Source: Gaiellaceae bacterium
GTDB lineage: Bacteria > Actinomycetota > Thermoleophilia > Gaiellales > Gaiellaceae
Assembly (NCBI GenBank): GCA_035941215.1
Contig: DASZEE010000005.1
Location: forward strand, 1-48,623
Reading direction: 5' to 3'
Length of the DNA: 48,623 nucleotides
The translations under genes were made by a program, and so were the position numbers. Positions 3,204-35,034 of the stretch are shown one piece after another. The notes beneath the pieces are model-generated. The model was not told where the DNA came from. It searched no databases and saw only the letters and a program-made list of their open reading frames with translations. Numbering within the stretch: position 1 is the first letter of the stretch; the number at the start of each line of letters is the position of its first letter.

Positions 3204-5602
3204 AGGACCGGGCACAGGTCGTCGTCGTCGGCGGCGGCGTCGGCGGGTGCGCCGTCCTCTACTGGCTGACGAAACTCGGCTGGGACGACGTCGTGCTCGT
3301 GGAGCGCGCCGACCTGACGAGCGGCTCCACTTTCCATTCAGCGGGCCTCGTCGGCCAGCTCCGCGGCTCGCTGAGCCTCACGAAGATGATGATGAGCAGC
3401 GTCGACCTCTACCGGACGCTCGGCGACGAGGTCGGCCTCGAGACCGGTTGGCACGAGGTCGGCTCCCTCCGTCTCGCCTCGTCGGAGGAGCGGATGGAGG
3501 AGCTCGCACGCCAGGCAGGCTGGGCGAAGACCTTCGGCCTCCCGCTGGAGCTGATCTCGGCGGATGAGGCGCAGCGGCTCTTCCCGCCGATGTCCACCGA
3601 CGGCGTTCGCGGCGCCGCCTACCTCCCCACCGACGGCTACATCGACCCCAGCCAGCTCACCTTCGCTCTCGCCGAGGGCGCCAGGCGCGGCGGCGCCGAG
3701 ATCGAGACGAAGACGCGGGTGACGGCGATTGTGGTCGAGCGCGGCCGTGTCCAGGCCGTCGAGACCGACAAGGGCCGCATCGAGACGGAGATCGTCGTCA
3801 ACGCCGGCGGGATGTTCGCCGCCGAGATCGGCGCACTCGCAAGGGTCGTCGTCCCGGTGATCCCGATGGCGCACGAATACCTCGTCACTCGACCGGCCGA
3901 TCTCCCACTCGAGCTGCCGACGATGCGCGATCCGTCGCTGCTCGTCTACTTCCGCGGCGAGTCCGGGGGCCTGGTGATGGGCGGCTACGAGCGGCACCCG
4001 GCGCCGTGGGGCCTCGACGGCATCCCTCCGGACTTCAACGGACGGCTGCTGGAGGAGGACTGGGACCGGTTCCAGGAGCTGATGGAGAACGCGATCGTCC
4101 GGGTTCCGATGCTGGAGGACGCCGAGGTGCTCCGGCTGATCAACGGCCCGGAGGCGTTCACGCCGGACGGCGAGTTCATCCTCGGCCCGACCGACGTGCG
4201 GGGCTTCTGGGTCGCCGCGGGGTTCTGCGCCCATGGTTTGGCCGGCGCCGGCGGGATGGGGAAGCTCGTGGCCGAGTGGATCGTCGAGGGGATCCCTAGC
4301 CTCGACGTCTGGGAGATGGACTCGCGGCGGTTCGGCCGCCACTACCGGAGCCGCGACTACACCCTCGCCCGCACGCTCGAGGTCTATTCGACGTACTACG
4401 ACGTCAAGTACCCCGGCCACGAGCGCAGCGCCGGCAGGCCGCTCCGCCTCTCCCCCGCGTACACGCGGCTCGCCGAGCTCGGCGCGGCCTTCGGCGAGAA
4501 GTCCGGCTGGGAGCGCGCGAACTGGTTCGAGCCGAACGCCGCCGCCGGGAACGAATCTCTCCGGCCGCGAGGCTGGGCGGGTCGCCTGTGGTCGCCCGCC
4601 GTCGGCGCGGAGCACAGAGCGACGCGGGAGTCGGCCGCGATCTTCGACGAGACGTCGTTCGCCAAGATCGAGGTGTCCGGCGAGGGGGCGGCGGACTTCC
4701 TGGAGCGCCTCTGCGACAACAAGGTCGTGCGAGACGTCGGCGCGATCACCTACACGTCGATGCTCAACGAGCGCGGCGGGATCGAGTGCGACTTCACGGT
4801 CACGCGACTCGCCGAGGACCGGTTCCGGATCGTCACCGGCACGGCATTCGGCCGGCACGACCTCGCCTGGATCCAGTCCCACGCGCCAGACGACGGCTCC
4901 GTCCGCGTCGAGGACGTCACCTCCCAGCTCGCCTGTCTGGGGGTCTGGGGGCCGCGATCGCGCGAGATCCTCGAGCCGCTCTCCGGTCCGCTCGACTTCC
5001 CGTACATGCGGTCGCGGGAGCTCGCGGTCGGCCCGGTGCCGTGCCTCGCCCTCCGCGTGACCTACGTCGGCGAGCTCGGCTGGGAGCTCTACTGCCCGAG
5101 CGAGTTCGGGCTCCGGCTTTGGGACGCGATCTGGGAGTCGGGCCGGGAGCATGGTCTCGTCCCAGGCGGCTACAGGGCGATCGACTCCTGCCGGCTCGAA
5201 AAGGGCTACCGGGTCTGGGGAGCGGACATCACCCCGGAGGACACGCCCTGGGAGGCCGGGCTCGGCTTCGCGGTCAAGCTCGACAAGGGCGACTTCCTCG
5301 GCCGCGAAGCGCTCGTGGACAGGAAAGAGCCCGAGCGGCTCCTGGTTTGCATCACGCTCGAGGACCCACGCGCCGTCGCGCTCGGATCGGAGCCGGTACG
5401 CATCGACGGCATCACGATCGGGCGGGTGACGAGCGGCGGGTACGGCTACACGGTCGAGCGCTCGATCGCGTACGCCTATGTCCCGGCCGAGCAGGCCGAG
5501 GTCGGAACGCCGGTCGAGATCGAGATCTTCGGGGACTGGATCGCCGGCGAGATCGCCCGGGAGCCGCTCTTCGATCCGGACGGGGAGCGGGTTCGTGCAT
5601 AG
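3200..5602 (+). CDS. FAD-dependent oxidoreductase fused to a GcvT-type aminomethyltransferase domain (dimethylglycine oxidase / sarcosine dehydrogenase family)
   Basis: Real start taken as GTG 3200, in frame with track ORF 2624..5602 and forming a GTGA overlap with the kinase stop. VVVVGGGVGGCAVLYWL dinucleotide fold at the N-terminus. The C-terminal half carries folate-binding GcvT-like segments (GPRSREILEPL, YVGELGWELY, LRLEKGY). About 800 aa. Confidence 0.85.
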   Translation: MKDRAQVVVVGGGVGGCAVLYWLTKLGWDDVVLVERADLTSGSTFHSAGLVGQLRGSLSLTKMMMSSVDLYRTLGDEVGLETGWHEVGSLRLASSEERMEELARQAGWAKTFGLPLELISADEAQRLFPPMSTDGVRGAAYLPTDGYIDPSQLTFALAEGARRGGAEIETKTRVTAIVVERGRVQAVETDKGRIETEIVVNAGGMFAAEIGALARVVVPVIPMAHEYLVTRPADLPLELPTMRDPSLLVYFRGESGGLVMGGYERHPAPWGLDGIPPDFNGRLLEEDWDRFQELMENAIVRVPMLEDAEVLRLINGPEAFTPDGEFILGPTDVRGFWVAAGFCAHGLAGAGGMGKLVAEWIVEGIPSLDVWEMDSRRFGRHYRSRDYTLARTLEVYSTYYDVKYPGHERSAGRPLRLSPAYTRLAELGAAFGEKSGWERANWFEPNAAAGNESLRPRGWAGRLWSPAVGAEHRATRESAAIFDETSFAKIEVSGEGAADFLERLCDNKVVRDVGAITYTSMLNERGGIECDFTVTRLAEDRFRIVTGTAFGRHDLAWIQSHAPDDGSVRVEDVTSQLACLGVWGPRSREILEPLSGPLDFPYMRSRELAVGPVPCLALRVTYVGELGWELYCPSEFGLRLWDAIWESGREHGLVPGGYRAIDSCRLEKGYRVWGADITPEDTPWEAGLGFAVKLDKGDFLGREALVDRKEPERLLVCITLEDPRAVALGSEPVRIDGITIGRVTSGGYGYTVERSIAYAYVPAEQAEVGTPVEIEIFGDWIAGEIAREPLFDPDGERVRA

Positions 5603-5641
5603 GGCAATTGACACGAACCCCGAAAAGGTGGGTCAATTGCC
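5589..5641 (+). promoter_or_regulatory. Two overlapping, mutually exclusive perfect inverted repeats at the oxidase/permease junction
   Basis: Hairpin A: GGGTTCGTG (5589-5597) pairs with CACGAACCC (5612-5620). Hairpin B: GGCAATTGAC (5603-5612) pairs with GTCAATTGCC (5632-5641). Position 5612 is shared, and the 5' arm of B lies in the loop of A. B ends 1 nt before the GTG at 5642. Confidence 0.4.
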
Positions 5642-7279
5642 GTGCCACGGCAACGACAACGGAGGGCTGCATTGAGTACCGAACCTGCGGCCGGCAGGCC
5701 AAGCGAGTACCTGGACGACGAGCGCCTGCTCCATCGGCTCGGCTACGCCCAGGAGTTGTTCCGCTCCATGGGCGGATTCCAGAACTTCGCGATCTCGTTC
5801 ACGATCATCTCCATCCTGGCGGGGTGCCTGACCTCGTACTTCATCGCGTTCAACAACGGCGGGCCGATCGCGGTTACCTGGGGCTGGCTGCTCGTCGGGG
5901 GGTTCTGCATCATCGTCGCGCTGGCGATGGCGGAGATCGCCTCGACGTTCCCGACCGCCGGCGGCCTCTACTACTGGGCGTCCCGTCTGGGAAGCCCCGC
6001 CTGGGGCTGGTTCACGGGGTGGTTCAACCTCCTCGGGCAGATCGCTGTCACGGCGGCGATCGGCTACGGCTGCGCCATCTTCTCGACCTCGCTCCTGAAT
6101 CTGGTCACGAACGGCAGCTACGGCAACACGCCGCGCTGGATCTTCTTCAGCTACAGCGTCATCCTCGCCGCGGCAGGCCTGATCAACATGATGAAGGTGC
6201 CGATCACGGCGATGCTGAACACGATCTCGGCCTGGTGGCACATGGCCGGCGTCCTCGTGATCGTCGGGATCCTGATCGTCGTCCCCGACAACCACCAGTC
6301 CGTCGGGTACGTGTTCGGCGAGACGATCAACAACTCGGGCTTCTCCGGGAGCAACTTCAACAGCATCGTCTTCTGGTTCGTGTTCGGGATCGGGCTGCTC
6401 ATGGCCCAGTACACGATCACGGGCTACGACGCGTCGGCGCACATGAGCGAGGAGACGCGACAGGCCTCGCGGGCGGCAGCGTGGGGCATCGTGATGTCCG
6501 TCGTCGTCTCCGTGATCTTCGGGTTCATCCTGCTCGTGGCGGTCACCTTCGCGGTACCGGACACCCAGGGCACGCTCGACGCGGTGGCCAACGCGGTGAC
6601 CTACATCTGGACGACGTCGATGTCGGAAGGATGGGCGGAGTTCCTGCTCTTCATCGCCGTCGTCGCGCAGACGTTCTGCACGATCGCCTCGGTCACCTCG
6701 GCGTCACGGATGAACTTCGCGTTCTCGCGCGACCGTGCGGTTCCCGGCCACCAGCTGTGGAGCAAGGTCTCGCGGAAAGAGCGCATCCCGATGTACTCGG
6801 TCTGGTTCATCGTCATCCTCTCGTGGGCGCTGATGCTCCCGACCCTGTCGAACGCGGCGGTCGGGTACCTGGTCGGCACCTCGATCGCGGTGATCGGGCT
6901 CTACATCGCGTTCGCCCTTCCGATCCTGCTGCGCCTGCGGCAGGGCGAGAACTTCGAGAAGGGAGCCTGGAGCCTCGGCAAGCACTACAAGTGGATCGAC
7001 GTCGTGGCACTGCTCTGGATCGCGTTGATCTGCATCCTCTTCCTGATGCCGACGGTCCCGACGGGGATCCCATGGAACGACGGCTTCGACTGGAACGTCG
7101 TCAACTACGCCCCGCTGACCGTGGGCGGATCCCTCCTGTTCTTCGGGGGCTGGTGGCTGATCTCCGCCAACAAGTGGTTCATCGGGCCGCGACGCCAGGG
7201 CACCGAGGAGGAGCTGGCGCGGATCGAGCGGGAGTACGAGCCGGGCCGCACGGCAACGACCGTTTCACCGGCGGAATAA
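5642..7279 (+). CDS. APC-superfamily permease (amino acid / choline-type transporter)
   Basis: 545 aa with about 12 hydrophobic segments. N-terminal signature LHRLGYAQELFRSMGGFQNFAISFTIISILAG is typical of amino acid/choline (ACT-like) permeases. The start (GTG 5642) is uncertain. Confidence 0.85.
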   Translation: MPRQRQRRAALSTEPAAGRPSEYLDDERLLHRLGYAQELFRSMGGFQNFAISFTIISILAGCLTSYFIAFNNGGPIAVTWGWLLVGGFCIIVALAMAEIASTFPTAGGLYYWASRLGSPAWGWFTGWFNLLGQIAVTAAIGYGCAIFSTSLLNLVTNGSYGNTPRWIFFSYSVILAAAGLINMMKVPITAMLNTISAWWHMAGVLVIVGILIVVPDNHQSVGYVFGETINNSGFSGSNFNSIVFWFVFGIGLLMAQYTITGYDASAHMSEETRQASRAAAWGIVMSVVVSVIFGFILLVAVTFAVPDTQGTLDAVANAVTYIWTTSMSEGWAEFLLFIAVVAQTFCTIASVTSASRMNFAFSRDRAVPGHQLWSKVSRKERIPMYSVWFIVILSWALMLPTLSNAAVGYLVGTSIAVIGLYIAFALPILLRLRQGENFEKGAWSLGKHYKWIDVVALLWIALICILFLMPTVPTGIPWNDGFDWNVVNYAPLTVGGSLLFFGGWWLISANKWFIGPRRQGTEEELARIEREYEPGRTATTVSPAE

Positions 7280-7297
7280 GCGCGTCACGACTTGGCG

Positions 7298-7325
7298 AGA
7301 GGGCGGGGCTTCGGCCCCGCTCTTT
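7298..7325. terminator. Bidirectional stem-loop between the convergent permease and small-protein genes
   Basis: Core GCGGGGC (7303-7309), loop TTCG, GCCCCGC (7314-7320). Extendable with G-U pairs. Followed by TCTTTCGTT. Confidence 0.55.
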
Positions 7326-7333
7326 CGTTGTCC

Positions 7334-7657
7334 CTACTCCACCAGGTGCTCGAACGCGTCGCGCTTGTCGACGACGAGGTAACGGTCGGACCGCACGACC
7401 ACGTGCTCGATTTCACCGTTCTCGTGACCGGGCACGACGGCGAAACGATCGCGCTGGCCGCGGACGTGCTCGTACTCCTCGAGCGTCATCAACAGACGGC
7501 TCTCGCACCCGTCGCCCTTCCCGCATTCGCACTGAAACTCGAACTGCTGCCCCGACTCGGCCCAGCCTGTCGCACGCTCGTCGATGGCGGCGATCTCATC
7601 GTTCACCGTGCGCATCAGAGCTTCGTTGCGGGCCTGCCGGTTGAGCCGCTCCTTCAC
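7334..7657 (-). CDS. Small conserved hypothetical protein, CEC..C..PGH family (paralogue 1 of 3 in this window)
   Basis: 107 aa. Shares N-E-x-x-x-R-x-x-N-[DE]-x-I, CEC-x5-C, YE-x-V-R, F-x-V-V-P-G-H-E and Y-x-V-V-x-K with the ORFs at 45586..45915 and 45922..46296. Confidence 0.75.
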   Translation of the reverse strand: MKERLNRQARNEALMRTVNDEIAAIDERATGWAESGQQFEFQCECGKGDGCESRLLMTLEEYEHVRGQRDRFAVVPGHENGEIEHVVVRSDRYLVVDKRDAFEHLVE

Positions 7658-7692
7658 GACCCGAATCTTACGACGCGTGCCGGGGGTTTCGG

Positions 7693-7992
7693 CTAGCCGA
7701 AGCCGAGGATGAATTTGGCGTCGTCGGACATCTTCTCCGGCGACCAGGGCGGATCCCAGGTCAGCTCGGTCTCGACCTCCTCGACGCCAGGGACTTCGGC
7801 GGTGACCTGGTTGATCTGCTCGTCGATCATCGGGCCGACCGGGCAGCCCATCGACGTGAGCGTGTAGATCACCTTCACCTTCGGCCCCTCGACCTCCACG
7901 TCGTACATGAGCCCGAGGTCGACGATGTCCATCCCGAGCTCGGGATCCTCCACTTGGCGGAGAGCCTCGACGACGTCATCTCTCGTTGCCAT
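7693..7992 (-). CDS. DUF59 / MIP18-family Fe-S cluster assembly protein (SufT-like)
   Basis: 99 aa. VEDPELGMDIVDLGLMY..TLTSMGCPVGPMI is the classic DUF59 signature with the conserved Cys. Confidence 0.85.
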   Translation of the reverse strand: MATRDDVVEALRQVEDPELGMDIVDLGLMYDVEVEGPKVKVIYTLTSMGCPVGPMIDEQINQVTAEVPGVEEVETELTWDPPWSPEKMSDDAKFILGFG

Positions 7993-8007
7993 GAGGGCAG
8001 CGTACCC

Positions 8008-9027
8008 CTAGAAGCCGGGTAGCCGAACTTCTTCCCGGCGCTCGCGCTGGAAGAAGTGGATGCCTTCGGTGAAGCGTACCCAGTTGCAGCGCGTGCACAT
8101 GACGAGTGTGTGCGTCCAGGCGCTGTCCGCGCGGAAGCGCACGCCGCGGAGGAGGTCGCTGTTCGAGACCCCCGTGGCGCAGACGATCGCCTCTTTCGGG
8201 GCAAGGTCCTCGGTAGTGAAGACGCGCTCGACGTCCTCGACCCCCTGCTCTCGCGCCTCGTCGATCTCCCGGCGAGACACCGGCCACAGCTGTGCCTGCA
8301 GCTCGCCGCCGAGGCAGCGAAGCGCCGCAGCCGCGAGCACCGCCTGCCGCGTTCCGCCGATGCCGACCGCGAGGTGGTCGTTCGTGCCGCGGATGGCGGC
8401 GGAGACCGACGCGGTGACGTCGCCGTCCTGGATCAGCTTGATGCGGGCGCCGGCAGCGCGAATCTCTTCGATCAGGTCGTGGTGTCGCGGCCGCTCCAGG
8501 ACGATCGTCGTGATGTCGCCGACCCGCCGGCCGAACGCTTCCGCGATCGCCTCGATGTTCGCGCCGACAGGCCGCCGGAGGTCGATGTTCCCCCGCGCGA
8601 CCGGCCCCACGGCCATCTTCCGCATGTACATGTCGGGAAGCGCCTGGAGGGACCCGGGCTCGCCGACCGCGATCATCGACATCGCGCCGTTACCGCCCCG
8701 CGCGACGATGCTGCTGCCCTCGAGTGGGTCCACGGCCAGCGCAACTTCCTCGCCCCCGTGCCCGAGCTGCACGCCGGTCTGGAGCCGCTCGCCTTCGCCG
8801 GCGGCACCGATTACGACGGTGCCGTCGATGGGAAGCTGCTCGAGCGCCTCGAGCATCCCGGACGTCGCAGCCTCCTGGGCCGCCGCCTCGTCGGCCCGCC
8901 CGAGCCACCGGGCGCTCGCCAGCGCCGCACGCTCGGTCCCCCGAGCAAAGCCCTCGCAGAGGCAGTTGCGAAGGGTTCCCTTGCCCTGGGCGGCGTTCTC
9001 CGTACCTCGCGCGGCGACGTCCGTCAT
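8008..9027 (-). CDS. glpX: Class II fructose-1,6-bisphosphatase
   Basis: 339 aa. GlpX-type motifs VDPLEGSS, GGNGAMSMIA, DGDV, GIGGT and a C-terminal ..VMCTRCNWVRF.. segment. ATGA overlap with the upstream gene stop (9024-9027). Confidence 0.9.
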   Translation of the reverse strand: MTDVAARGTENAAQGKGTLRNCLCEGFARGTERAALASARWLGRADEAAAQEAATSGMLEALEQLPIDGTVVIGAAGEGERLQTGVQLGHGGEEVALAVDPLEGSSIVARGGNGAMSMIAVGEPGSLQALPDMYMRKMAVGPVARGNIDLRRPVGANIEAIAEAFGRRVGDITTIVLERPRHHDLIEEIRAAGARIKLIQDGDVTASVSAAIRGTNDHLAVGIGGTRQAVLAAAALRCLGGELQAQLWPVSRREIDEAREQGVEDVERVFTTEDLAPKEAIVCATGVSNSDLLRGVRFRADSAWTHTLVMCTRCNWVRFTEGIHFFQRERREEVRLPGF

Positions 9028-9935
9028 GACGAGACCCTGACCCGATCGGCCGCCGCCAAAACAAGCTCCAGCACGCCGCCGATCGCCTTCTCCCGCTCGG
9101 AGTTCTCGATCACGGGCACATCCTCTACCTGCGCGCGCTCGACGATGTAGTCCTGGAGGTACCGGATGTCGCCGAGGCGTTCGAGGTACTTGTCCAGCGG
9201 CCGGACGCCCTCGGAGGCGATGTCGCGGATCCAGAAGTGCCCGGCGTGCGTCTCTTCGTTCCCGATCGTGATCACACAGTCGACGACGAGCGCGTTCTCG
9301 ACCATGCGCGGGAGCATCCCCGGGACGAGGTGGACGCCTTCGATGACCATCGACCAGCCCTCCTCGAGCGAGCGGTCGATCGCCGCCTGGACGCCGACCA
9401 GGACGTGGCGGGTCTGCTCGAGGAACCCGTGGAGGAGCGGGTCGACCTCCTCCTCCTGTGCCGTCGGCAGCGCCCGGCCGGCGTCGAAGCTCGAGTAGTG
9501 GATCGCCGGCAGAAACTCGGGCGTGAAGAGCGCGCGCATGGTCTGGCGTACGAAGTCCGTCGACGTTACGCGCGTGATCCCGAGCCGGTACGCGACCTCG
9601 GCGGCGACCGTCGACTTGCCTGTGCCTGTGGCCCCGCCGATCAGGATGATGAGCGGCATGTCGAGCTCGTCCAGCTCCTGGTAGCGGCGGAGCCGGCCGA
9701 TCGTGACGCTGCCGTCGGGCTCGCCCAGCACCTCGACTGCGAGCTCTTCGATCCGGTCGAAATCAGCTGTCCGCTTGCCGCTCGCCGCCAGATCCTGCTC
9801 GATGCGGCGCGCGACCTCGTACGCCCCGGCGACGCCGAGCCCGGTGCGCATCAACGCCCTGGCCATCAGGCCCTTCGAGTAGGGATGCTCGTCGGTGCCG
9901 AGGTGGAGCGGATCGAAGCGGCGGCGCTCGGGCAT
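9024..9935 (-). CDS. 2-phosphoglycerate kinase-like protein (archaeal COG2074 type)
   Basis: 303 aa. N-terminal PYSKGLMARALMRTGLGVAGAYEVARRIEQDL. P-loop PLIILIGGATGTGKSTVA followed by RLGITRVTSTDFVRQTMR and SSFDA, the layout I recall for methanogen 2PGK. Confidence 0.8.
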   Translation of the reverse strand: MPERRRFDPLHLGTDEHPYSKGLMARALMRTGLGVAGAYEVARRIEQDLAASGKRTADFDRIEELAVEVLGEPDGSVTIGRLRRYQELDELDMPLIILIGGATGTGKSTVAAEVAYRLGITRVTSTDFVRQTMRALFTPEFLPAIHYSSFDAGRALPTAQEEEVDPLLHGFLEQTRHVLVGVQAAIDRSLEEGWSMVIEGVHLVPGMLPRMVENALVVDCVITIGNEETHAGHFWIRDIASEGVRPLDKYLERLGDIRYLQDYIVERAQVEDVPVIENSEREKAIGGVLELVLAAADRVRVSS

Positions 9936-11200
9936 CAGCTGACCGGCTCTGGTTGAGCCGTCTCCGCAAGCGCGCGCAGCTCGTCGTCGAGGTTCGGCTG
10001 GCCCTCGAGCGGTACTACGTCGTTGTCCGCAAAGACCACCGGAACGCCACGATCGGCCGCGGCCTGCGCCACGACGTCGATTGCGGCGGCCTTGATCTCG
10101 ACGACGAAGACGTCGGCGACCGCCCTCTCCACGTCCTCTCGGAGCTGCTCGCGGCGCGAGAGGTTGCAGGAGACGGTCACGTCGGCGGCACCATGCTCCT
10201 CACGGAGATGCTGCTTGAGGAGCCCGGTCGCTGAAGCGTCGGCGGTGGTGAAGAACGCGACGCGCCTGCCGTCGATCGGCTCGACAGGCCGCGGACGGAG
10301 GACGGTCGCCACGACGGGGACGTTCTTGACCTCGCGGATCGCGTCCGCGACGTCCGAGTGGCGTGTGCCTTCCTCGGCCATGGTCAGGACGACGAGGTCC
10401 GAGACGAGGATGCGGTACGCGTTCAGGTAGCCGACCACGAGCTCCGGCGGCTGGTGGGCGCCGGCGACGAGCACCCGCTTCCGGGTCGCAACCGGCGGGA
10501 TCGCGGCGCCGCTCCCGTCGAAGATCACGAACTCGGGCTCCCGTCCAAGCGCCTTCTGGACGCCGGCGGAGACGTTGCTAGTCCACGGGACGCCGGCCAG
10601 CCCACCGCCGGCGCGCCGGCAGCCGATCGTCGGAACGCCGGAGAGCGCCGCGGTCTCGAGGTAGTCCGACGCGGCATGTGCGCCCGCGCGCGAGAGCTCC
10701 AGGAGATCCTCGACGGTCGGCCGCAGTTCGGCGACCTGGGGCTCCGCGGGGCCTCCCCTTCCCATCGAGACGACCACGAGGTCGCGGTCGCCGGAAAGCA
10801 GGCGCGCCGCGTATCCCGTGACCGCCGTCTTGCCGAGCCGCTTGCCCGTCCCGATCACGGCGAGCGACGGGAGCTCGAACGGTTCGTACTCCGGGACGCG
10901 AAGCGAGAAATCGGCGCCTTCGTAGGCGATGCCGAGCGCAAGGAACTTGCTCGCGAGGCGGAACCGCTCACGCGGGCCGAGCACGGGCTCGTCCGAGACG
11001 TCCACGGCGACCTCCGGCTCGAACAGTGAGATCGCCTCCTCGAGGTCGGCCGCCACCGGAACGCCGTACTCGTCGCCGCCGACAAGCTTCTCCGTCCCGC
11101 CGACGAGCAGCGCGCCGACGACCTCGTGCGGAATCTCGGCCAGCGCGTCGCGCACGACCGGCGCATAGTGCTCACCGTCGATCAGCGCCAGGGCCCTCAC
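9935..11200 (-). CDS. cpgS: Cyclic 2,3-diphosphoglycerate synthetase-like protein
   Basis: Start taken as GTG (11200-11198), which gives a GTGA overlap with the upstream stop. The track ORF extends to 11611, but the extra 137 aa are Arg/Pro-rich junk. N-terminus ALALIDGEHYAPVVRDAL and P-loop IGTGKRLGKTAV match my recollection of archaeal cDPGS. About 421 aa. Confidence 0.7.
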   Translation of the reverse strand: MRALALIDGEHYAPVVRDALAEIPHEVVGALLVGGTEKLVGGDEYGVPVAADLEEAISLFEPEVAVDVSDEPVLGPRERFRLASKFLALGIAYEGADFSLRVPEYEPFELPSLAVIGTGKRLGKTAVTGYAARLLSGDRDLVVVSMGRGGPAEPQVAELRPTVEDLLELSRAGAHAASDYLETAALSGVPTIGCRRAGGGLAGVPWTSNVSAGVQKALGREPEFVIFDGSGAAIPPVATRKRVLVAGAHQPPELVVGYLNAYRILVSDLVVLTMAEEGTRHSDVADAIREVKNVPVVATVLRPRPVEPIDGRRVAFFTTADASATGLLKQHLREEHGAADVTVSCNLSRREQLREDVERAVADVFVVEIKAAAIDVVAQAAADRGVPVVFADNDVVPLEGQPNLDDELRALAETAQPEPVS

Positions 11201-11997
11201 CGGATCGTCACCTCGCCCTCGATCCGGGCCGTGTACTTCTCGAACGCCCGCGTGTCGAGCGAGAACTGGATGATCCGCTCCTGCCCGTGGAACGGGTACT
11301 TGCGCCAAACGTCCACGTGCTTTCCGTGGACCTCGATGACGTTGTAACACGGTCTCGTATTGCCCCTGAGCCGGATGGAGGAGACCGTGCCGGTGTTGAC
11401 GACGAACATGTCCTCGAGGCGCCAGGCGTACGGGACATGTTTGTGACCCGACAGGACGAGATCGACCCGAGCGCCCTGGAGGCACTCGATGACGTCTCCG
11501 GCGTCGTAGACGATGTTGCGCTCCCGGCCCGTCCCCGGCACCGGGAGCAGGTGATGGTGCATTACGAAGATCCGGAAATCTGCCGGCGGCGCGAACTGCT
11601 CCTCGATCCATGAGTAGCGCCCCCGGCCGATCTGGCCGTGGTCGAGATCGGGCTCGCTGGAGTCGACGGCGACGACGGTGATCTCCTCCATCCGCAGGAC
11701 GGAATGGCGGTCGCCGAAGAACTCCTCGAAGTGCAGGTAGCCGACGTTTCGCGAGTCGTGGTTGCCCGGGATGACGACCATCCGGTCGCAGTGGAGGCGA
11801 TCGAGATACTCGCGCGCCATGAGGTACTCCTGCTTGAACCCGAACGTCGTCAGGTCTCCCGAGCAGATGATCAGATCGGGCTCCAGCTCGTTGATCTCGG
11901 CCACAGCGCGCTCCATCAGGCTCGGCACGAAGTCGGGGCCACCGCAGTGGATGTCCGAGATGTGGGCGATCGTCCTCGACCCGTCGCGGCCCGGCAT
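11197..11997 (-). CDS. Calcineurin-like metallophosphoesterase
   Basis: All five MPE motifs: ISDIHCG, SGDLT, IPGNHD, VMHHH, SGHKH. Start taken at ATG 11997 (MPGRDGSRTIAHISD). The track start at 12090 adds 31 non-conserved residues. Confidence 0.8.
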   Translation of the reverse strand: MPGRDGSRTIAHISDIHCGGPDFVPSLMERAVAEINELEPDLIICSGDLTTFGFKQEYLMAREYLDRLHCDRMVVIPGNHDSRNVGYLHFEEFFGDRHSVLRMEEITVVAVDSSEPDLDHGQIGRGRYSWIEEQFAPPADFRIFVMHHHLLPVPGTGRERNIVYDAGDVIECLQGARVDLVLSGHKHVPYAWRLEDMFVVNTGTVSSIRLRGNTRPCYNVIEVHGKHVDVWRKYPFHGQERIIQFSLDTRAFEKYTARIEGEVTIR

Positions 11998-12059
11998 GCT
12001 CGAAGTGTAAGAAGGCCGCGAGGGGCGGTGTCCGAGGCTGTCGGTACTCTCCGGAGCTG

Positions 12060-12428
12060 GTGGCCGAAAAAGTTCCTGATTTCCAGGCATATCGTGGAGA
12101 AGGGCAGCCGTGCTTCGCCCACGAGGTCGAGTTCGAATGCGCGAAGCTGCTCGACTACTACGGGATTCCCTGGATGTACGAGCCGCACACGTTCGTGCTC
12201 GAGAGGGCGCCCGACGGCCGGGTGGTCGAGGCGTTCGCGCCCGACTTCTACCTCCCCGAGCAGGACCTCTACGTCGAGCTGACCGTGATGAAGCAGTCGC
12301 TCGTCACACGGAAGAACCGCAAGCTGCGCAAGCTTCGTGAGCGGTATCCGGATGTGAACGTCAAGCTCTTCTATCGTCGGGACATCGAGAGACTGGCGCA
12401 GCGATACCGACTGGATCTGGCCTCGTAG
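12060..12428 (+). CDS. Hypothetical protein, possible PD-(D/E)xK nuclease-like fold
   Basis: 122 aa with a GTG start. APDFYLPEQDLYVELTVMKQ resembles a D...E-x-K catalytic core. No family recognised. Confidence 0.55.
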   Translation: MAEKVPDFQAYRGEGQPCFAHEVEFECAKLLDYYGIPWMYEPHTFVLERAPDGRVVEAFAPDFYLPEQDLYVELTVMKQSLVTRKNRKLRKLRERYPDVNVKLFYRRDIERLAQRYRLDLAS

Positions 12429-12436
12429 CACCCGAA

Positions 12437-12961
12437 CTGGACGCGAGAATCGGCGAGATCTATCTCTCGGCCGGGGACCTCAGGGCTCGGGTCGGCGAGC
12501 TCGGAGCCGCCATCGCGGCCGACTACGGCGGCCGCGAGCCGATCCTCGTCGCCTCGCTGAAGACGGCCATCGTCTTCCTCTCGGATCTCTCCCGCGCCCT
12601 GCCGATCGTCCACAACCTCGACTTCTTCGCCCTCGCAGGCTACGAGGGGAACGGAGGCGGCGGCGGACGTGTCCGGCTCCTGAAAGACCTGGGTTTGAGC
12701 ATCAAGGGCCGCGACGTGGTGCTCGTCGAGGACGTGGTCGACACCGGGATGACGCTCAACTTCCTCGTCAAGACCCTGGCGCTGCGGGAGCCGCGCTCCC
12801 TCACGGCCGTCGCCCTCCTCGACCGCCCGTACCGGCGTCTCGTCGAGGATCTCCCGGTCCGGTACGTGGGCTTCACGGTGCCGGACGAGTTCTTCGTCGG
12901 CTACGGATTCGACCTCGACGGGCGCTGGCGCAACCTGCCGGACCTGCGACTGCTTCGCTGA
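12437..12961 (+). CDS. hpt: Hypoxanthine-guanine phosphoribosyltransferase; the 5' end has no canonical start codon
   Basis: The frame is open from 12341. The translation ..PELDARIGEIYLSAGDLRARVGELGAAIAADYGGREPILVASLKTAIVFLSDLSRAL..VVLVEDVVDTGMTLNFL..FVGYGFDLDGRWRNLPDL is a full-length Hpt. The ORF track reports only the last 88 aa (TTG 12695). CTG at 12437 is my placeholder start. Confidence 0.8.
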   Translation: MDARIGEIYLSAGDLRARVGELGAAIAADYGGREPILVASLKTAIVFLSDLSRALPIVHNLDFFALAGYEGNGGGGGRVRLLKDLGLSIKGRDVVLVEDVVDTGMTLNFLVKTLALREPRSLTAVALLDRPYRRLVEDLPVRYVGFTVPDEFFVGYGFDLDGRWRNLPDLRLLR

Positions 12962-12967
12962 CAACGA

Positions 12968-12991
12968 CCGGCCGCCCCGGAGGGCGGCCGG
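12968..12991. terminator. Perfect 10-bp GC hairpin just after the hpt stop
   Basis: CCGGCCGCCC, loop CGGA, GGGCGGCCGG. Confidence 0.5.
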
Positions 12992-13096
12992 CGCCGTCGG
13001 GAGACGACAGTGCCGCAAGCCAAGAGCGCGCGAGGCTTGCAGCGCGGAAACTATAAGCGCCTGGCTTCAAAAATGGGGCATTTCTTCCCGGCCGCC

Positions 13097-13227
13097 GCGA
13101 AACGGGCTTTGCCCGTTTCGCTTGAGTACAAGCCGGGTGGGATCGCGAGTGGCGCGCTTTCGCGCCGCGCGGCGCGAAGCGCCGCCCGGCTTCCGGGGGG
13201 TCGCGGAAAGTCGTGAGACTTTCCGCG
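13097..13227. other. Densely structured intergenic segment (candidate ncRNA or compound terminator)
   Basis: Perfect 11-bp hairpins at 13097-13121 (GCGAAACGGGC ttt GCCCGTTTCGC) and 13202-13227 (CGCGGAAAGTC gtga GACTTTCCGCG). A 10-bp long-range pairing joins 13131-13140 to 13182-13191. It encloses GGCGCG cttt CGCGCC and the 14-nt palindrome GCGCCGCGCGGCGC. Confidence 0.35.
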
Positions 13228-21479: not shown

Positions 21480-22007
21480 TCAGGCTGTTCGCGTCTGTGC
21501 CGGGCGGATTCGGCGCACCAGGACCGGCGCGACGAGGATCACGAGGATTCCTCCGGCCGCCAGCAGGTAGCGGAGCCAGCCTTGCGTGTTCCGGGACGAC
21601 GCCGGACGCGCCTCGACCGCAGCCGGCCATGTCGTGGGGGGCTGGAAAGGCTCCAGCTCGCGGATCGCCGGCGAGAGTTGATCCAGCGCCTCCGTGCGAG
21701 GGACGTACCAGAGGAGCGCCCGCGCGGCACCGACGTTCGACGCGATCAGCGCCGACGACGGGACGAACAGGACCGAGTATCCGTTCCGGTCGCCACCCGC
21801 CTCGAACTCGATGTCCACGCGGTAGAACGAGGCAACCGGGGGAGGCTCGAAGACCGTTTCCGCCGGGCTGAGCAGGTACGCCGCTCGATCCTCGAGCGTG
21901 ACGCACGCCTCCGCTCCACAGACTCGGATGGTCACCATTCCCTTGGCGTTCGCGGTCGCGGGCAGCGCGAGGGTCACAAGGGCGAGAACCGCAGCGAGCC
22001 TCTGCAC
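21480..22007 (-). CDS. Hypothetical secreted protein with a C-terminal membrane anchor
   Basis: Only the last 175 codons of track ORF 21480..23291 look real; the rest is antisense to the PMM gene. GTG 22007 gives a signal peptide (M)QRLAAVLALVTLALPATANA. C-terminal TM helix WLRYLLAAGGILVILVAPVLV. Confidence 0.55.
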   Translation of the reverse strand: MQRLAAVLALVTLALPATANAKGMVTIRVCGAEACVTLEDRAAYLLSPAETVFEPPPVASFYRVDIEFEAGGDRNGYSVLFVPSSALIASNVGAARALLWYVPRTEALDQLSPAIRELEPFQPPTTWPAAVEARPASSRNTQGWLRYLLAAGGILVILVAPVLVRRIRPAQTRTA

Positions 22008-22058
22008 AGCCGATCTACACCGTAATCCAGCGCACGGTTCCGGGGATAGAGTCCGGCC

Positions 22059-23405
22059 GTGCTCGATCCGAAGGTTTTCAAGGCGTACGACATTCGGGGA
22101 ATTCACCCGACCGAGCTTGACGAGGACGGCGCGTACGCGATCGGGCGGGCGTACGTCGAGCAGTTCGAGCCGCGGCGAATCGGCGTCGGGCGGGACATGC
22201 GCGTGTCGTCGCCCTCGATGGCCGCCTCGCTGATCCGCGGTGCGACCGACGCAGGAGCCGACGTCCTCGACCTCGGCCTGGTGGGCACTGAGATGGTCTA
22301 TTTCGCCGTCGGCGAGCTGCAGCTCGACGGCGGCGTCGCCGTCACCGCTTCGCACAACCCGAAGGAATACACGGGGATGAAGATCGTCCGCCGGGGGGCG
22401 CTGCCCGTCGGCGGGGACTCCGGCCTGCTGGACATCCGCGACCGGGCCATGGCCCTCGGGGACACGCCTGGGGGTCAGACCCCAGGACAGGTCCAAGAGC
22501 ACGACGCCTGGCCGGCCTACGTCGAGCGCGTCCTGTCGTTCGTGGACGTGTCGTCGATCGGGCTGCTCCGGGTCGTGATCGATGCCGCGAACGGGATGGC
22601 GGGCGCAATGCTGCCTCCCGTGCTCGAGCGCCTGCCCATCGAGGCGATCCGCTACTACTTCGAGCCGGACGGGACTTTCCCGAACCACGAGCCGAACCCG
22701 CTGCTCCCCGAGAACCGCGAGTTCATCATCGAGCGGACGACGGCGGAGGGAGCCGACTTCGGCGTCGCCTTCGACGGGGACGCCGACCGGTGCTTCTTCG
22801 TCGACGACGAGGGCGAGTTCGTCCCGGGCGACTTCGTGACCGCGCTCCTCGCGCAGTCCGTGCTGGAGAAGAGCCCGGGCGGCAAGATCATCTACGACGT
22901 CCGCGCCAGCTGGGCCGTGCCCGAGACGATCGAGGGCGCCGGCGGGACGCCGCTCGTCAACCGCGTCGGCCACGCATTCATCAAGCATCGGATGCGCGAG
23001 GAAGGTGCCGTCTTCGGCGGCGAGGTCTCGGGCCACTACTACTTCCGCGAGTTCAGCCAGGCGGACTCCGGCGTCGTTCCGTTCCTCCTGATGCTCGAGC
23101 TCGTCTCCCGTCGCGGCAAAAAGCTCTCCGAGATCCTGCGCCCGTACCGCGACCAATACTTCATCACCGGCGAGCTGAACACGCCGGTTCCCGATGTCGC
23201 GAACAAGCTCCAGGAGCTCGAGGAGCGGTTCGGCGCGCAGGGAGAGGTCTCGCACCTCGACGGGGTCTCTGTCGACGCCGACGGGTGGCACTTCAACGTG
23301 CGCCCCTCGAACACGGAGCCGCTGCTGCGGCTGAACCTCGAAGCGCGCTCCGAGGAGCTGATGGAGCAGAAGCGCGACGAGGCGCTCGACGTCATCCGCT
23401 CGTGA
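22059..23405 (+). CDS. Phosphomannomutase/phosphoglucomutase (alpha-D-phosphohexomutase family)
   Basis: 448 aa. KAYDIRG, active-site TASHNPKEYTGMK, metal loop FDGDADR, sugar loop GGEVSGH. Confidence 0.9.
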   Translation: MLDPKVFKAYDIRGIHPTELDEDGAYAIGRAYVEQFEPRRIGVGRDMRVSSPSMAASLIRGATDAGADVLDLGLVGTEMVYFAVGELQLDGGVAVTASHNPKEYTGMKIVRRGALPVGGDSGLLDIRDRAMALGDTPGGQTPGQVQEHDAWPAYVERVLSFVDVSSIGLLRVVIDAANGMAGAMLPPVLERLPIEAIRYYFEPDGTFPNHEPNPLLPENREFIIERTTAEGADFGVAFDGDADRCFFVDDEGEFVPGDFVTALLAQSVLEKSPGGKIIYDVRASWAVPETIEGAGGTPLVNRVGHAFIKHRMREEGAVFGGEVSGHYYFREFSQADSGVVPFLLMLELVSRRGKKLSEILRPYRDQYFITGELNTPVPDVANKLQELEERFGAQGEVSHLDGVSVDADGWHFNVRPSNTEPLLRLNLEARSEELMEQKRDEALDVIRS

Positions 23406-31136: not shown

Positions 31137-31871
31137 GTGAAGGCCCTACTGCTCGGGGCTGCGGCGCTACTCATTCTGCTGCCCGGCGCCGCACGGGGGG
31201 TCGGTGAGCCGCGCCTGATCGGGACGGTTCGGGACGACCTCACGATCACGCTGAAGGACGTGAACGGCAACCCGGTCACCTCCGTCGGGCCCGGCACATA
31301 CGACTTCGAGATCCACGACGAGACCTTTAGCCACAACTTCCACCTGACCGGTCCGGGCGTGGATCGAAGGACAGAGGTCGCCGACGTCGCGACGACGACA
31401 TGGGAAGACGTCGTCGTGCAGCCGGCGTCGACGTATCAGTTCGTGTGCGACCCGCACGCCGATTTCATGAAAGGCAGCTTCACGACGCCTGGGGCGTCTC
31501 CCCCGCCGCCGCCGCCGCCGCCACCACCTCCTCCGCCTCCGCCGCCAGGGCCGCCGCCTCCTCCTCCTCCTCCGCCGCCGCCGGCCGGTCCGCACGCCCA
31601 CCAGTCCGTGTCAGGAGTCCGCATGCGGATCGCCCGGGCAGGCGGACGCCGCTGGCTCGTCGCCCGCGCGCGGGTCACGAGGGCTGCGTCGGCGCGCCTC
31701 CAGCTCCTGCGGCGGAACCGGACCGTGGCGAGTGCGAGGCGGCGCTTCCGCGCGGGACGGAACGAGCTCCGGCTCCGCCTCCCGCGCTCGCTGCCCCGCG
31801 GCACCTACGTCGCCCGCCTGACGATCGGCGGCGCGGCCCGCCCTTACACGGCCCGAATACCGATTGGCTAG
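31137..31871 (+). CDS. Secreted cupredoxin-like (type-1 copper) domain protein with a very long polyproline linker and a basic C-terminal domain
   Basis: 244 aa. Signal peptide MKALLLGAAALLILLPGAARG. Candidate Cu ligands in HNFHL and FVCDPHADFM (C-x2-H-x3-M). A Pro run follows, then a C-terminal Arg-rich beta-like domain ending PRGTYVARLTIGG. Confidence 0.65.
   Translation: MKALLLGAAALLILLPGAARGVGEPRLIGTVRDDLTITLKDVNGNPVTSVGPGTYDFEIHDETFSHNFHLTGPGVDRRTEVADVATTTWEDVVVQPASTYQFVCDPHADFMKGSFTTPGASPPPPPPPPPPPPPPPPGPPPPPPPPPPPAGPHAHQSVSGVRMRIARAGGRRWLVARARVTRAASARLQLLRRNRTVASARRRFRAGRNELRLRLPRSLPRGTYVARLTIGGAARPYTARIPIG
31500..31580 (+). repeat. Low-complexity CCN tract encoding polyproline
   Basis: By my codon count there are 15 consecutive Pro codons (31500-31544), one GGG, then 11 more Pro codons (31548-31580), using mixed CCG/CCA/CCT/CCC. 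Confidence 0.9.
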
Positions 31872-31882
31872 CCTCTTCCGCC

Positions 31883-32770
31883 GTGCGGTGGGCTGCGCTC
31901 GCAACCGTCGCGGCCGGGGTCGGAATAGCGCTCTCGGTCGCTCAGCTGGCGCCCGGCCAGAGCATCGACCGTGTCCGCGTCGCGCCGAATCCTCCCGTGG
32001 CGAGCGTCCCACCGGGGCTCTTCATCGTCGTCGGCTCGCCGGACGCCTACTCGCGGGTCTCCGCCTCCGCCGGCCGCGGCAGCTGGGTGGGTCCGGGCTA
32101 CGCGCCTCGCGGTGCGCCGAATCCGTGGGGGAACGTCGCGATCGACTGGGAGGTCGGCTACGACACGCGGCAGCTCGACACCGAGCGCGTCGCGCTCGCG
32201 AACCTGACCCGCGACTGGCAGGAGGACCAGCGCGCGGGCGCATCGATTCCGCACGTCGTCGGCGGCCGGATCGTCGGTGAGGTTCCGGGCTTCTTCGTCC
32301 TTCAGGTCGTGCGCCAGTCCGCGCCGGCCGAGCTCGTGGTCGCCTTCCCGTTGAGCCGGGACGTCCACGCATACGTGCGCTTCCTCCTCCTGCGGCCGGA
32401 GTCGAACGACTTCTACGTCAACGGCTCGATCATCGCGTCGAGCTGGAACCGCGGCCAGGCGTTCGTCGCGATGTCGCGCGTGCGGCTCGAGGGGAACCTT
32501 CCACCGTCGCTCGTCTCGATCCGCGCCCGGCGTGGCGGCCGGGTGGTTTCGGGGTTCGTGCTCGACTTCGTGCGCCACCCCGTCGTCCGGATCCCCGTCG
32601 TCTTGGAGCGGCAGAGCGGCCGCGGATGGCGCCGTGTCGCGACCGTCCGCACGACGCGGATCGGCGGCTACAAATTCAGGGTCGCGCCCGGGACCTACCG
32701 TGCCCGCGCCCAGCTCGGCGCGCGCTTCTCCGCCACGAGCAGCGTCGTCCGGATTCGCGCTCCGCGCTAG
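31883..32770 (+). CDS. Hypothetical secreted or membrane-anchored protein
   Basis: GTG 31883, in frame with track ORF 31400..32770. N-terminal hydrophobic WAALATVAAGVGIALSVAQLAPG. The C-terminus has a PGTYRARAQL motif that echoes the preceding gene. Confidence 0.55.
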   Translation: MRWAALATVAAGVGIALSVAQLAPGQSIDRVRVAPNPPVASVPPGLFIVVGSPDAYSRVSASAGRGSWVGPGYAPRGAPNPWGNVAIDWEVGYDTRQLDTERVALANLTRDWQEDQRAGASIPHVVGGRIVGEVPGFFVLQVVRQSAPAELVVAFPLSRDVHAYVRFLLLRPESNDFYVNGSIIASSWNRGQAFVAMSRVRLEGNLPPSLVSIRARRGGRVVSGFVLDFVRHPVVRIPVVLERQSGRGWRRVATVRTTRIGGYKFRVAPGTYRARAQLGARFSATSSVVRIRAPR

Positions 32771-34080: not shown

Positions 34081-34959
34081 TCACCGCTGGGTGAGCTTCT
34101 GGGCGAGCCACTCCTGGCGGTCGGTGTCGGCCTCCGGCCCCATGTGGTGCCCGTAGTCGGGGTACCACTTGACCTCGGCGCCGTCGGCGTCCTCGGCCAG
34201 GCGCTCGTACTCCCTGAGGGGCCAGTCGTCGTCGCGCCGCGGATTCTGGATCAGGACGTCGCCGTCGAACGCGCCCAGGAGGCGAACCGGGTCGAAGTCC
34301 CGCAGCAGCTTGTGAAAGCTGTCGAAGGTCTCCTGGGGAACAAACTCCTTCGCCCAGTACCTGCTGGGCTCGGCCGGCACCGCCGACAGCACGAGGGCGT
34401 CGACGCGGTCGTCCACCGCCGCAAGGCCACCGGCCGACAAGGCCCCGTACTCCTGGCCCACGACGGCGATCCGGTCGTCGATGTCGTCTCTCCGCTCCAG
34501 ATAGTCCAGCGCACGGCGGAGGTCGACGAGGTCGTGGCGCACGATCGACCGGAACGAATCCGCTGCGTACACGGGATCCAGGAGATCGACCTGCGGGATG
34601 TCCGGTCGGGTCATCACGCCGTTGACGAGCAGCACCGCGACACCGCGCGCCGCAAGGTCCAACGCCTCGCGGTAGTAGAGCGCGCGCGAGAAGCGGTACG
34701 GGTGGAGGTATACGGCAACGGGGTAGCGCTTCCCTTGCTCCGCGCCGGGCGGGAGGACGACCGTCGCCTCGACGTCGCCGCCGCGTGGGCTCTGGAAGGA
34801 GATGTCGGTCGAGCCCGAGTTCTCTGCCTCGATCTTGGTCCGCAGCGGCTTCTGCTCGTCGTAGGCGCCGAGCTCGGCGACGTGCGAGGCCGAGTCGCTG
34901 CCGCCGCAGCCGGCCAGCGCGAGCGCAACGAGCGTGAGAGCCGCAGTCCGACCGAGCAC
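34081..34959 (-). CDS. Alpha/beta-hydrolase-fold lipoprotein (dienelactone hydrolase / S9-like)
   Basis: GTG 34959 gives (M)LGRTAALTLVALALAGCGG, a lipobox LAGC. Also VAVYLHPY, RIAVVGQEYGALSAGG and a C-terminal YPDYGHHM. An alternative start lies at ATG 35052. Confidence 0.6.
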   Translation of the reverse strand: MLGRTAALTLVALALAGCGGSDSASHVAELGAYDEQKPLRTKIEAENSGSTDISFQSPRGGDVEATVVLPPGAEQGKRYPVAVYLHPYRFSRALYYREALDLAARGVAVLLVNGVMTRPDIPQVDLLDPVYAADSFRSIVRHDLVDLRRALDYLERRDDIDDRIAVVGQEYGALSAGGLAAVDDRVDALVLSAVPAEPSRYWAKEFVPQETFDSFHKLLRDFDPVRLLGAFDGDVLIQNPRRDDDWPLREYERLAEDADGAEVKWYPDYGHHMGPEADTDRQEWLAQKLTQR

Positions 34960-35034
34960 GGCGCCAACTCTAGTCCGCGTGGGTAGACGATCCTCGATCC
35001 AGCGACTACCCTCGGAGACCGCATCGCAACAGAC

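Follow-up and report, generated by a model that had tools for sequence, protein, structure and literature searches.

A predicted Gaiellaceae operon for synthesis and turnover of cyclic 2,3-diphosphoglycerate on the gluconeogenic trunk

Known cDPG systems and the Gaiellaceae locus

The 2-phosphoglycerate kinase (2PGK) of Methanothermus fervidus was reportedly described by Lehmacher and Hensel in 1994, and the cyclic 2,3-diphosphoglycerate (cDPG) synthetase (cDPGS) of the same archaeon is said to have been described by Matussek et al. in 1998. We know of no gene that has been linked to the activity that hydrolyzes cDPG. Here we analyzed a four-gene operon that probably serves both synthesis and turnover of this compound in a bacterium. 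The operon occupies positions 8008-11997, on the minus strand, of a 48,623-nucleotide stretch of DNA from a Gaiellaceae bacterium (contig DASZEE010000005.1 of assembly GCA_035941215.1), and this whole stretch is referred to as the window. The product has been described as exclusive to hyperthermophilic methanogens (PMC10690619, PMC12136491); it is also under development as an industrial extremolyte. In M. thermautotrophicus, the cDPG hydrolase activity is membrane-bound and inhibited by K+ and inorganic phosphate (Pi) (van Alebeek 1994; Sastry 1992, cited in PMC1224877). Synthesis of cDPG diverts 2-phosphoglycerate (2-PG) from gluconeogenesis and its hydrolysis returns carbon and phosphate, and the regulated hydrolase is consistent with a role of cDPG in carbon and phosphate storage (Roberts 2005, PMC1224877). 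In Pyrococcus yayanosii, the adjacent gene pair PYCH_14390-400 has already been read as cDPG synthesis genes (PMC4890121).

The four genes of the Gaiellaceae operon are the following:

11197-11997, minus strand: gene 1, metallophosphoesterase (MPE), 266 aa, ATG start at 11997, first gene of the operon
9935-11200, minus strand: gene 2, cDPGS-like protein, 421 aa, GTG start at 11200
9024-9935, minus strand: gene 3, 2PGK-like P-loop kinase, 303 aa
8008-9027, minus strand: gene 4, GlpX, class II fructose-1,6-bisphosphatase (FBPase), 339 aa

All four open reading frames (ORFs) and the three overlaps between them read as an earlier note on this DNA had claimed. The GTG start of gene 2 lies over the TGA stop of gene 1 (GTGA, 11197-11200), stop and start of genes 2 and 3 have one base in common (TGATG, 9933-9937), and genes 3 and 4 meet in ATGA at 9024-9027. 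The peptides quoted in that note (LIDGEHYAPV, GTGKRLGKTAV, PYSKGLMARAL and GGATGTGKST) were likewise all found in the translations. Longer alternative starts exist in the ORF list at 12090 for gene 1 and at 11611 for gene 2. The shorter ones were preferred because they agree with the lengths of the homologues (266-270 aa and about 421 aa), because the divergent gene upstream begins at 12060, and because a conserved TAnnnT box ends 6 nt before the ATG at 11997.

To compare the locus with its relatives, species-representative genomes were searched with a 14-sequence subset of a 54-member cDPGS alignment. At least 478 stretches encode a cDPGS relative, and the best 80 of them, a sample that leans toward close relatives of the query, were analyzed. 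Across these 80 loci, with start codons set by a heuristic, the overlap was kept at 70 of 78 MPE/cDPGS, 69 of 76 cDPGS/2PGK and 37 of 40 2PGK/GlpX junctions. The arrangement is thus supported as a translationally coupled bacterial operon. Its GC content of 0.68-0.70 is uniform over the operon and its flanks.

Gene 2 matched the M. fervidus cDPGS structures 8oru/8ork in the PDB with an E value of 5.3e-88, residues 3-414 of 421 aligning to residues 6-450 of the chain, and the Thermococcales-type cDPGS 9sxb with 1.7e-73. In the M. fervidus enzyme, 2,3-diphosphoglycerate (2,3-DPG), Mg2+ and ADP are bound by E45, K46, K145, R146, K149, T150, D208, E305, T353, E404 and K406. Among these, K145, R146, K149 and T150 belong to the Walker A motif, E45 and K46 act from the other subunit, D208 is the Mg ligand, and E305, T353, E404 and K406 provide nucleotide contact and charge shielding (PMC10690619). 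All eleven residues are conserved in the window protein, where the matching motifs are GGTEKL, GTGKRLGKT, HAASD, MAEE, FFTTA and EIKAAA. Among 54 diverse full-length homologues, K38, K120, R121, K124, T125, E368 and K370 (window numbering) are invariant, and E37, D179 and T319 are at least 90% conserved. Pfam and NCBIfam profile scans returned no family for this protein; PF27272 (CpgS_N), its precomputed Pfam assignment (as P0001), is newer than the Pfam release that was scanned. Full-length alignment together with retention of every ligand residue bears out the earlier reading of gene 2 as cDPG-synthetase-like and supports its placement as a bona fide member, by sequence, of the cDPG synthetase family (CpgS; PF27272, KEGG K05716). 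The window thus resembles the M. fervidus pathway in employing the same two enzyme families and an identical Walker A motif, GTGKRxGKT. It differs in that the two synthetases share only about 40% identity, that its host is a bacterium, probably from soil or sediment, and that an MPE and GlpX are joined to the two genes in a single translationally coupled operon.

Gene 3 scored best with NF003259, a 2PGK model, with an E value of 6.5e-78 over positions 14-290 of the 306-position profile, and the P-loop GGATGTGKST is intact. The score of 262.2 bits is below the equivalog cut-off of 343 bits, and a second 2PGK model, NF008994, gave 257.3 bits versus a cut-off of 603. The next-best functional model, mevalonate-3-phosphate 5-kinase (NF008996), reached only 85 bits. 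Hence the earlier claim of a 2PGK-like protein stood as far as the best full-length match is concerned, whereas the score under the cut-off is the kind of outcome that the earlier note had itself named as speaking against it. Further guidance came from the genes next to cDPGS in other lineages, which are arranged as follows:

L083 and L091 (Rho-encoding bacteria; L083 with 44% GC): apgM - MPE - cDPGS - 2PGK - TAL/FSA (transaldolase/fructose-6-phosphate aldolase) - rho
L084 (Acidimicrobiales): cDPGS - 2PGK
L085 (Cloacimonadota): cDPGS - 2PGK - CBS - tandem MPE
L090 and L092: 2PGK - cDPGS - apgM - CBS, with PPDK upstream in L092
L081 and L082 (Bipolaricaulota): cDPGS - iPGM
L086 (Thermococcus): cDPGS - 2PGK

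A tblastn search with the window 2PGK retrieved the genes abutting cDPGS in L083-L086 with E values of 2e-49 to 2e-58. Genes of the 2PGK family abut cDPGS in seven of these other lineages, and two exceed the NF003259 cut-off (Thermococcus with 401 bits and L092 with 344 bits), while L083, L084, L085, L090 and L091 scored 283-317 bits. Best-hit coverage and the conserved synteny with cDPGS support the assignment of gene 3 to the 2PGK family (COG2074), as judged from sequence. The Thermococcales (P. yayanosii, T. paralvinellae L086 and the 9SXB type) resemble the window in that a 2PGK-family gene comes immediately after cDPGS and the two ORFs overlap or abut. In contrast, the Thermococcus 2PGK has a recognizable ATP-cone and passes the NCBI cut-off, and the cassette lacks GlpX and a member of the MPE subfamily and has a mannosylglycerate-synthase-like gene nearby.

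The cDPGS gene of Bipolaricaulota is coupled to that of a 2,3-BPG-independent phosphoglycerate mutase, which is followed by a 304-aa protein (L081 11321-12235, L082 7299-8213) without any family match. This protein was considered as a 2PGK and rejected, as it showed no similarity to the window 2PGK or to the 2PGK models. With the window 2PGK as query, tblastn found nothing in L081 and L082, and no 2PGK homologue was seen within about 8 kb. In Methanothermobacter and M. fervidus, a small RimB-like gene (PF05618) follows cDPGS (L087 7405-7935, L088 5914-6492) and may be a conserved archaeal cDPGS partner.

Metallophosphoesterase, GlpX and the conserved gene order

Gene 1 matched PF00149 with 8.9e-21 (75.6 bits versus a cut-off of 21.5). 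Its five metal-ligand motifs DIH, GDL, GNHD, HHH and GHKH are intact and conserved in the orthologues. The cDPGS-linked MPEs additionally possess motifs of their own, HHHLLPVPGTGRERN, DSSEPDLDxGxIGR and LRLRG. The nearest solved structures are those of Rv0805, the cyclic nucleotide monophosphate (cNMP) phosphodiesterase of M. tuberculosis, and GpdQ, a glycerophosphodiesterase of Enterobacter, both by sequence (3e-10) and by fold (TM-score about 0.65, with a model pLDDT of 84.5).

In all 80 Gaiellales loci, the MPE gene lies directly 5' of cDPGS. A reverse search starting from a non-Gaiellales MPE gave the same picture: of 64 informative metagenome loci, a sample that likewise leans toward close relatives of its query, 60 have cDPGS as the next gene downstream, three have it at another place in the locus, and one lacks it. 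These loci cover several lineages with GC contents of 0.36-0.73, and their fourth gene is TAL/FSA in 14 cases and GlpX in many others. Between the window and L083, the identity is 53% for MPE, 43% for cDPGS and 38% for 2PGK, and MPE also ranks first in conservation among these genes within the Gaiellales.

Gene 4 was confirmed as the class II FBPase that had been claimed. It matched PF03320 with 2.9e-102 (342 bits), passed TIGR00330 marginally (263.5 bits versus a cut-off of 259.3) and resembled the M. tuberculosis FBPase II structure 6ayu over its full length (2e-65); a 25-residue N-terminal extension lies beyond the Pfam match. Both the M. tuberculosis (6AYU) and the E. coli (1NI9) GlpX match gene 4 in full length, and gene 4 differs from them in being translationally coupled to a 2PGK-family gene. 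The earlier note had regarded the pathway as hard-wired to this gluconeogenic enzyme. The coupling is real in the window, and 61 of 77 informative Gaiellales loci have GlpX after 2PGK. However, it is missing in the other 16, where a DUF59/SufT-like gene is found directly 3' of 2PGK, and GlpX is thereby ruled out as the key partner. The invariant and tightest operon partner is the MPE.

The closest homologues of all operon genes are found in metagenome-assembled genomes (MAGs) of Gaiellaceae, Gaiellales and Thermoleophilia, with up to 93-98% identity. The order MPE-cDPGS-2PGK is present in 80 of 80 Gaiellales/Actinomycetota genomes where the contig allows, at protein identities of 53-98%. When representatives of 50%-identity clusters were searched, the cDPGS family as a whole gave 1123 matches, of which 278 had E<=1e-30. 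Beyond the best 80 loci, which all belong to Gaiellales/Actinomycetota, taxonomic breadth was taken from cluster names and single-contig look-ups. By source name, bacterial members come from Gaiellales, Solirubrobacterales, Acidimicrobiales, other Actinomycetota, Bipolaricaulota and Cloacimonadota; archaeal members come from Thermococcus and from all sampled genera of Methanobacteriales, including the mesophilic Methanobacterium and Methanobrevibacter.

Phosphoglycerate mutases make 2-PG. Genes for such enzymes neighbor the cassette in L081, L083, L090, L091, L092 and many metagenome loci, and PPDK, TAL/FSA or GlpX also stand alongside in various lineages. As phosphoglycerate mutase and gluconeogenic or pentose-phosphate genes recur near the cassette, they lend independent support to a phosphoglycerate as the substrate. 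The conserved functional unit is MPE-cDPGS-2PGK with an appended, variable fructose-phosphate enzyme.

The literature that we found on the synthetase together with bacterial taxa or MAGs consists of archaeal studies only, in agreement with the earlier statement that a bacterial cDPG system with this operon architecture is not known to have been characterized. JGI and NCBI annotation already labels bacterial homologues as '(cyclic) 2,3-diphosphoglycerate synthetase', so that the bacterial genes are annotated but unstudied, and what is new is the implied biology and not the gene call. Neither the three-gene core with the MPE subfamily nor its near-universality in the retrieved Gaiellales genomes appears in the cDPG literature found.

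Two MPE variants were observed beyond the 80 genome loci. L170 (Ga0190271_10038274) encodes a member of the subfamily (67% identity) without cDPGS within 2.9 kb downstream; it is the only such informative locus and could represent a paralogous copy or a rearrangement. In Cloacimonadota, L085 8733-10232 encodes a 499-aa protein with two MPE domains in tandem. The catalytic motifs are retained in the first domain but lost from the second (GD to GG, GNHD to AGRD, GHKH to GTSS), so that the latter looks like a degenerate pseudo-enzyme domain.

Proposed pathway and competing explanations

From family membership, active-site conservation, linkage, operon conservation and phyletic spread, we infer the substrates and the product of the pathway. 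In the reading that we consider probable, the Gaiellaceae operon would direct the synthesis and turnover of cDPG on the gluconeogenic trunk. By analogy to the archaeal enzymes, the 2PGK-family kinase would convert 2-PG and ATP to 2,3-DPG. The synthetase would then form cDPG from 2,3-DPG and ATP via a 2-pyrophosphate intermediate, as has been proposed for M. fervidus (PMC10690619). The MPE would either open the phosphoanhydride of cDPG or dephosphorylate 2,3-DPG, whereby carbon and phosphate would return to 3-phosphoglycerate or 2-PG. GlpX would link the cDPG pool to gluconeogenic flux, a place that would be taken elsewhere by TAL/FSA, phosphoglycerate mutase or PPDK. These appended genes fit the picture of diversion and return of carbon drawn by Roberts 2005.

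Metallophosphoesterases cleave phosphodiester and pyrophosphate bonds, which makes opening of a cyclic pyrophosphate by the MPE plausible. Linkage and chemistry suggest it as a candidate cDPG hydrolase or, alternatively, a candidate 2,3-DPG phosphatase. The hydrolase activity of M. thermautotrophicus converts cDPG to 2,3-DPG, the reaction proposed here for the window MPE. The former is known only as an activity, whereas the latter is predicted from a gene.

Several observations weigh against this reading. The compound is unreported in any bacterium and, as said above, is described as exclusive to hyperthermophilic methanogens. In M. fervidus and Methanothermobacter, where cDPG is proven, cDPGS has no 2PGK or MPE neighbor. 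The distance to the characterized synthetase is considerable, and gene 3 stays under its equivalog cut-off, with no solved 2PGK-family structure in the PDB on which its substrate residues could be checked. The role proposed for the MPE is without archaeal precedent; the archaeal hydrolase is membrane-bound, and nothing marks the window MPE as such, although no transmembrane prediction was made. Unless controlled after translation, a hydrolase made alongside the synthetase would render the synthesis futile. Finally, GlpX could be no more than the housekeeping FBPase of this bacterium.

Some of these observations would also fit a different chemistry, in which both P-loop enzymes use another phosphorylated hydroxy acid or sugar acid and the product is a different, possibly cyclic, pyrophosphate or bisphosphate. 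The 2PGK family does include a member with another substrate, the mevalonate-3-phosphate 5-kinase, and to the sub-threshold kinase score and the roughly 40% synthetase identity one may add the extra conserved MPE, which is absent from the proven archaeal systems and could signal such a difference. Yet each residue contacting 2,3-DPG, Mg and ADP is conserved, the 2PGK models score threefold above the mevalonate-phosphate kinase model, and the neighboring genes encode phosphoglycerate mutases and enzymes of gluconeogenesis rather than functions in isoprenoid or sugar-acid metabolism. We therefore regard another substrate as unlikely. We also give little credence to the view that the MPE is an ordinary CpdA/Icc cyclic-nucleotide phosphodiesterase and that MPE and GlpX are unrelated transcript-mates of a two-gene cassette. 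JGI does name the MPE homologues '3',5'-cyclic-AMP phosphodiesterase CpdA' or 'Icc protein', the nearest structures are Rv0805 and GpdQ, and GlpX is dispensable in 16 of 77 loci. Rv0805 and GpdQ are class III metallophosphoesterases, and the window MPE shares with them the motifs of the dinuclear metal site, but the identity is only 20-23%, and its subfamily is set apart by the invariant PVPGTGRERN and the other two motifs named above and by its near-exclusive linkage to cDPGS. The CpdA equivalog NF008359 gave only 40.1 bits versus a cut-off of 225, and SpdA 43.3 versus 400. The position 5' of cDPGS in almost every genome and metagenome locus, over a GC range of 36-73%, the stop of MPE overlapping the start of cDPGS at most junctions, and the conservation of MPE, which exceeds that of the other module genes, all argue against a chance association.

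The earlier note had called the pathway archaeal-type and proposed a phylogeny as a check for archaeal origin. A recent acquisition from a hyperthermophilic archaeon, serving thermoprotection, would agree with the discovery of the pathway in hyperthermophilic methanogens and its description as exclusive to them (PMC10690619, PMC12136491). However, the GC content of the operon equals that of its surroundings, and the operon is present with conserved flanks in at least 80 Gaiellales genomes. In a distance-based neighbor-joining (NJ) tree of 51 taxa (Kimura distances, 200 bootstraps), support was 100% both for the Gaiellaceae clade and for that of the Methanobacteriales. The two were never close: the smallest clade holding both comprised at least 28 of the 51 taxa across the 200 bootstraps. 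The labeled archaea were monophyletic in 0 of 200 bootstraps, and the closest cDPGS relatives are other Actinomycetota. As the deep nodes of the NJ tree are unresolved, we make no claim on the ultimate origin of the family. In view of GC match, conserved flanks and tree, we reject a recent horizontal transfer from archaea, of which the tree showed no sign, and the reading as a whole seems to us very improbable; 'archaeal-type' survives as a historical label for a family that occurs in many bacterial lineages.

A thermoprotective role is unlikely, since the relatives are MAGs which, judging by their isolate labels, derive from soil, fen, Antarctic, and mud or sediment samples, and since mesophilic methanogens keep cDPGS. 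For the Gaiellaceae, the habitat was judged from such labels and from the occurrence of the Gaiellales as a widespread and abundant order of soil actinobacteria. Within the cDPG reading, a role as an anionic osmolyte, as a protectant against desiccation or oxidative stress, or as a carbon and phosphate reserve is more likely than one as a thermoprotectant. If correct, cDPG would be made by mesophilic soil bacteria of several phyla, and its function would shift from thermoprotection to the buffering of stress, carbon and phosphate. Production of cDPG could then draw on enzymes from high-GC bacteria and on naturally occurring cassettes of three genes, and the MPE linkage offers a concrete and cheaply checked candidate for the cDPG hydrolase gene. 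A relevance to soil organic phosphorus pools would be speculative. A bolder version, in which the MPE is the missing cDPG-specific hydrolase or another obligatory third enzyme of the pathway and cDPG is a widespread bacterial reserve and anionic solute in essentially all Gaiellales and several other phyla, is conceivable, though we hold it only tentatively and would sooner doubt it.

Promoter region, flanking genes and other features of the window

The operon is flanked by the following features:

11998-12059: divergent promoter region, 62 bp between the MPE gene and orf122; its promoter function is inferred
12060-12428, plus strand: orf122, 122 aa, divergent from the operon
7693-7992, minus strand: DUF59/SufT-like Fe-S assembly gene (PF01883), 15 nt after GlpX

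A -10-like box, TACACT, is located at 12004-12009 on the minus strand, 6 nt upstream of the ATG at 11997. In about 70 related intergenic regions, TA(C/G)ACT or TATGCT is retained just 5' of the MPE start, and a GGTA(G/C)C...CGGAC element is retained next to the start of orf122. Since the TACACT box ends 6 nt before the start codon, a leaderless transcript is suggested, and the operon mRNA is probably leaderless with its promoter at about 12004-12009, as far as the sequence indicates. A sigma-70 consensus scan found no promoter, two terminator-like matches both fell within coding sequence, an Rfam search of 7000-13200 returned no RNA family, and a PHO-box-like repeat was not evident in the aligned upstream regions of related loci.

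The divergent orf122 was kept in 77 of 80 Gaiellales loci at 58-97% identity, in most of them at the same divergent position. It belongs to no Pfam or NCBIfam family, and in our own reading its stretch FAPDFYLPEQDLYVELTVMKQ may resemble a PD-(D/E)xK nuclease motif. On the other side of the operon, the DUF59/SufT-like protein matched PF01883 with 6.7e-20 and TIGR02945 with 101.7 bits, which is under the cut-off of that model. Its gene lies downstream in most related loci, with variable spacing and no overlap; a median of 116 nt separates it from a preceding GlpX, and in loci that lack GlpX it stands about 38 nt behind 2PGK. This gene is possibly co-transcribed with the operon and stands outside the coupled core. 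The next ORF (7334-7657, minus strand, 107 aa) has no family match and is conserved in the closest relatives only.

In the wider window, the earlier note had described a pdxST-yebC-ruvCAB-recJ-rel backbone. Rel, RecJ, RuvB, RuvA, RuvC and PdxT were recovered, whereas YebC and PdxS stayed unconfirmed, as the ORFs taken for them (31868-32578 and 34081-35052, respectively) had no Pfam match. These two are among four long minus-strand ORFs without a Pfam family, the others being 3338-5614 and 21480-23291; given the GC content of 68-70%, several of the four may be spurious opposite-strand or wrong-frame ORFs.

An FtsH-like ORF (38893-41304, minus strand, 803 aa) has an interrupted AAA match: residues 238-315 align to positions 1-73 of the 131-position AAA profile, and the lid of the AAA domain does not follow until 516-547. 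A partial M41 peptidase match covers residues 574-677 (profile positions 6-109 of 191). No intein/Hint family matched this ORF at E<=0.1. The interruption implies, on the predicted protein, an insertion of about 200 aa within the ATPase domain.

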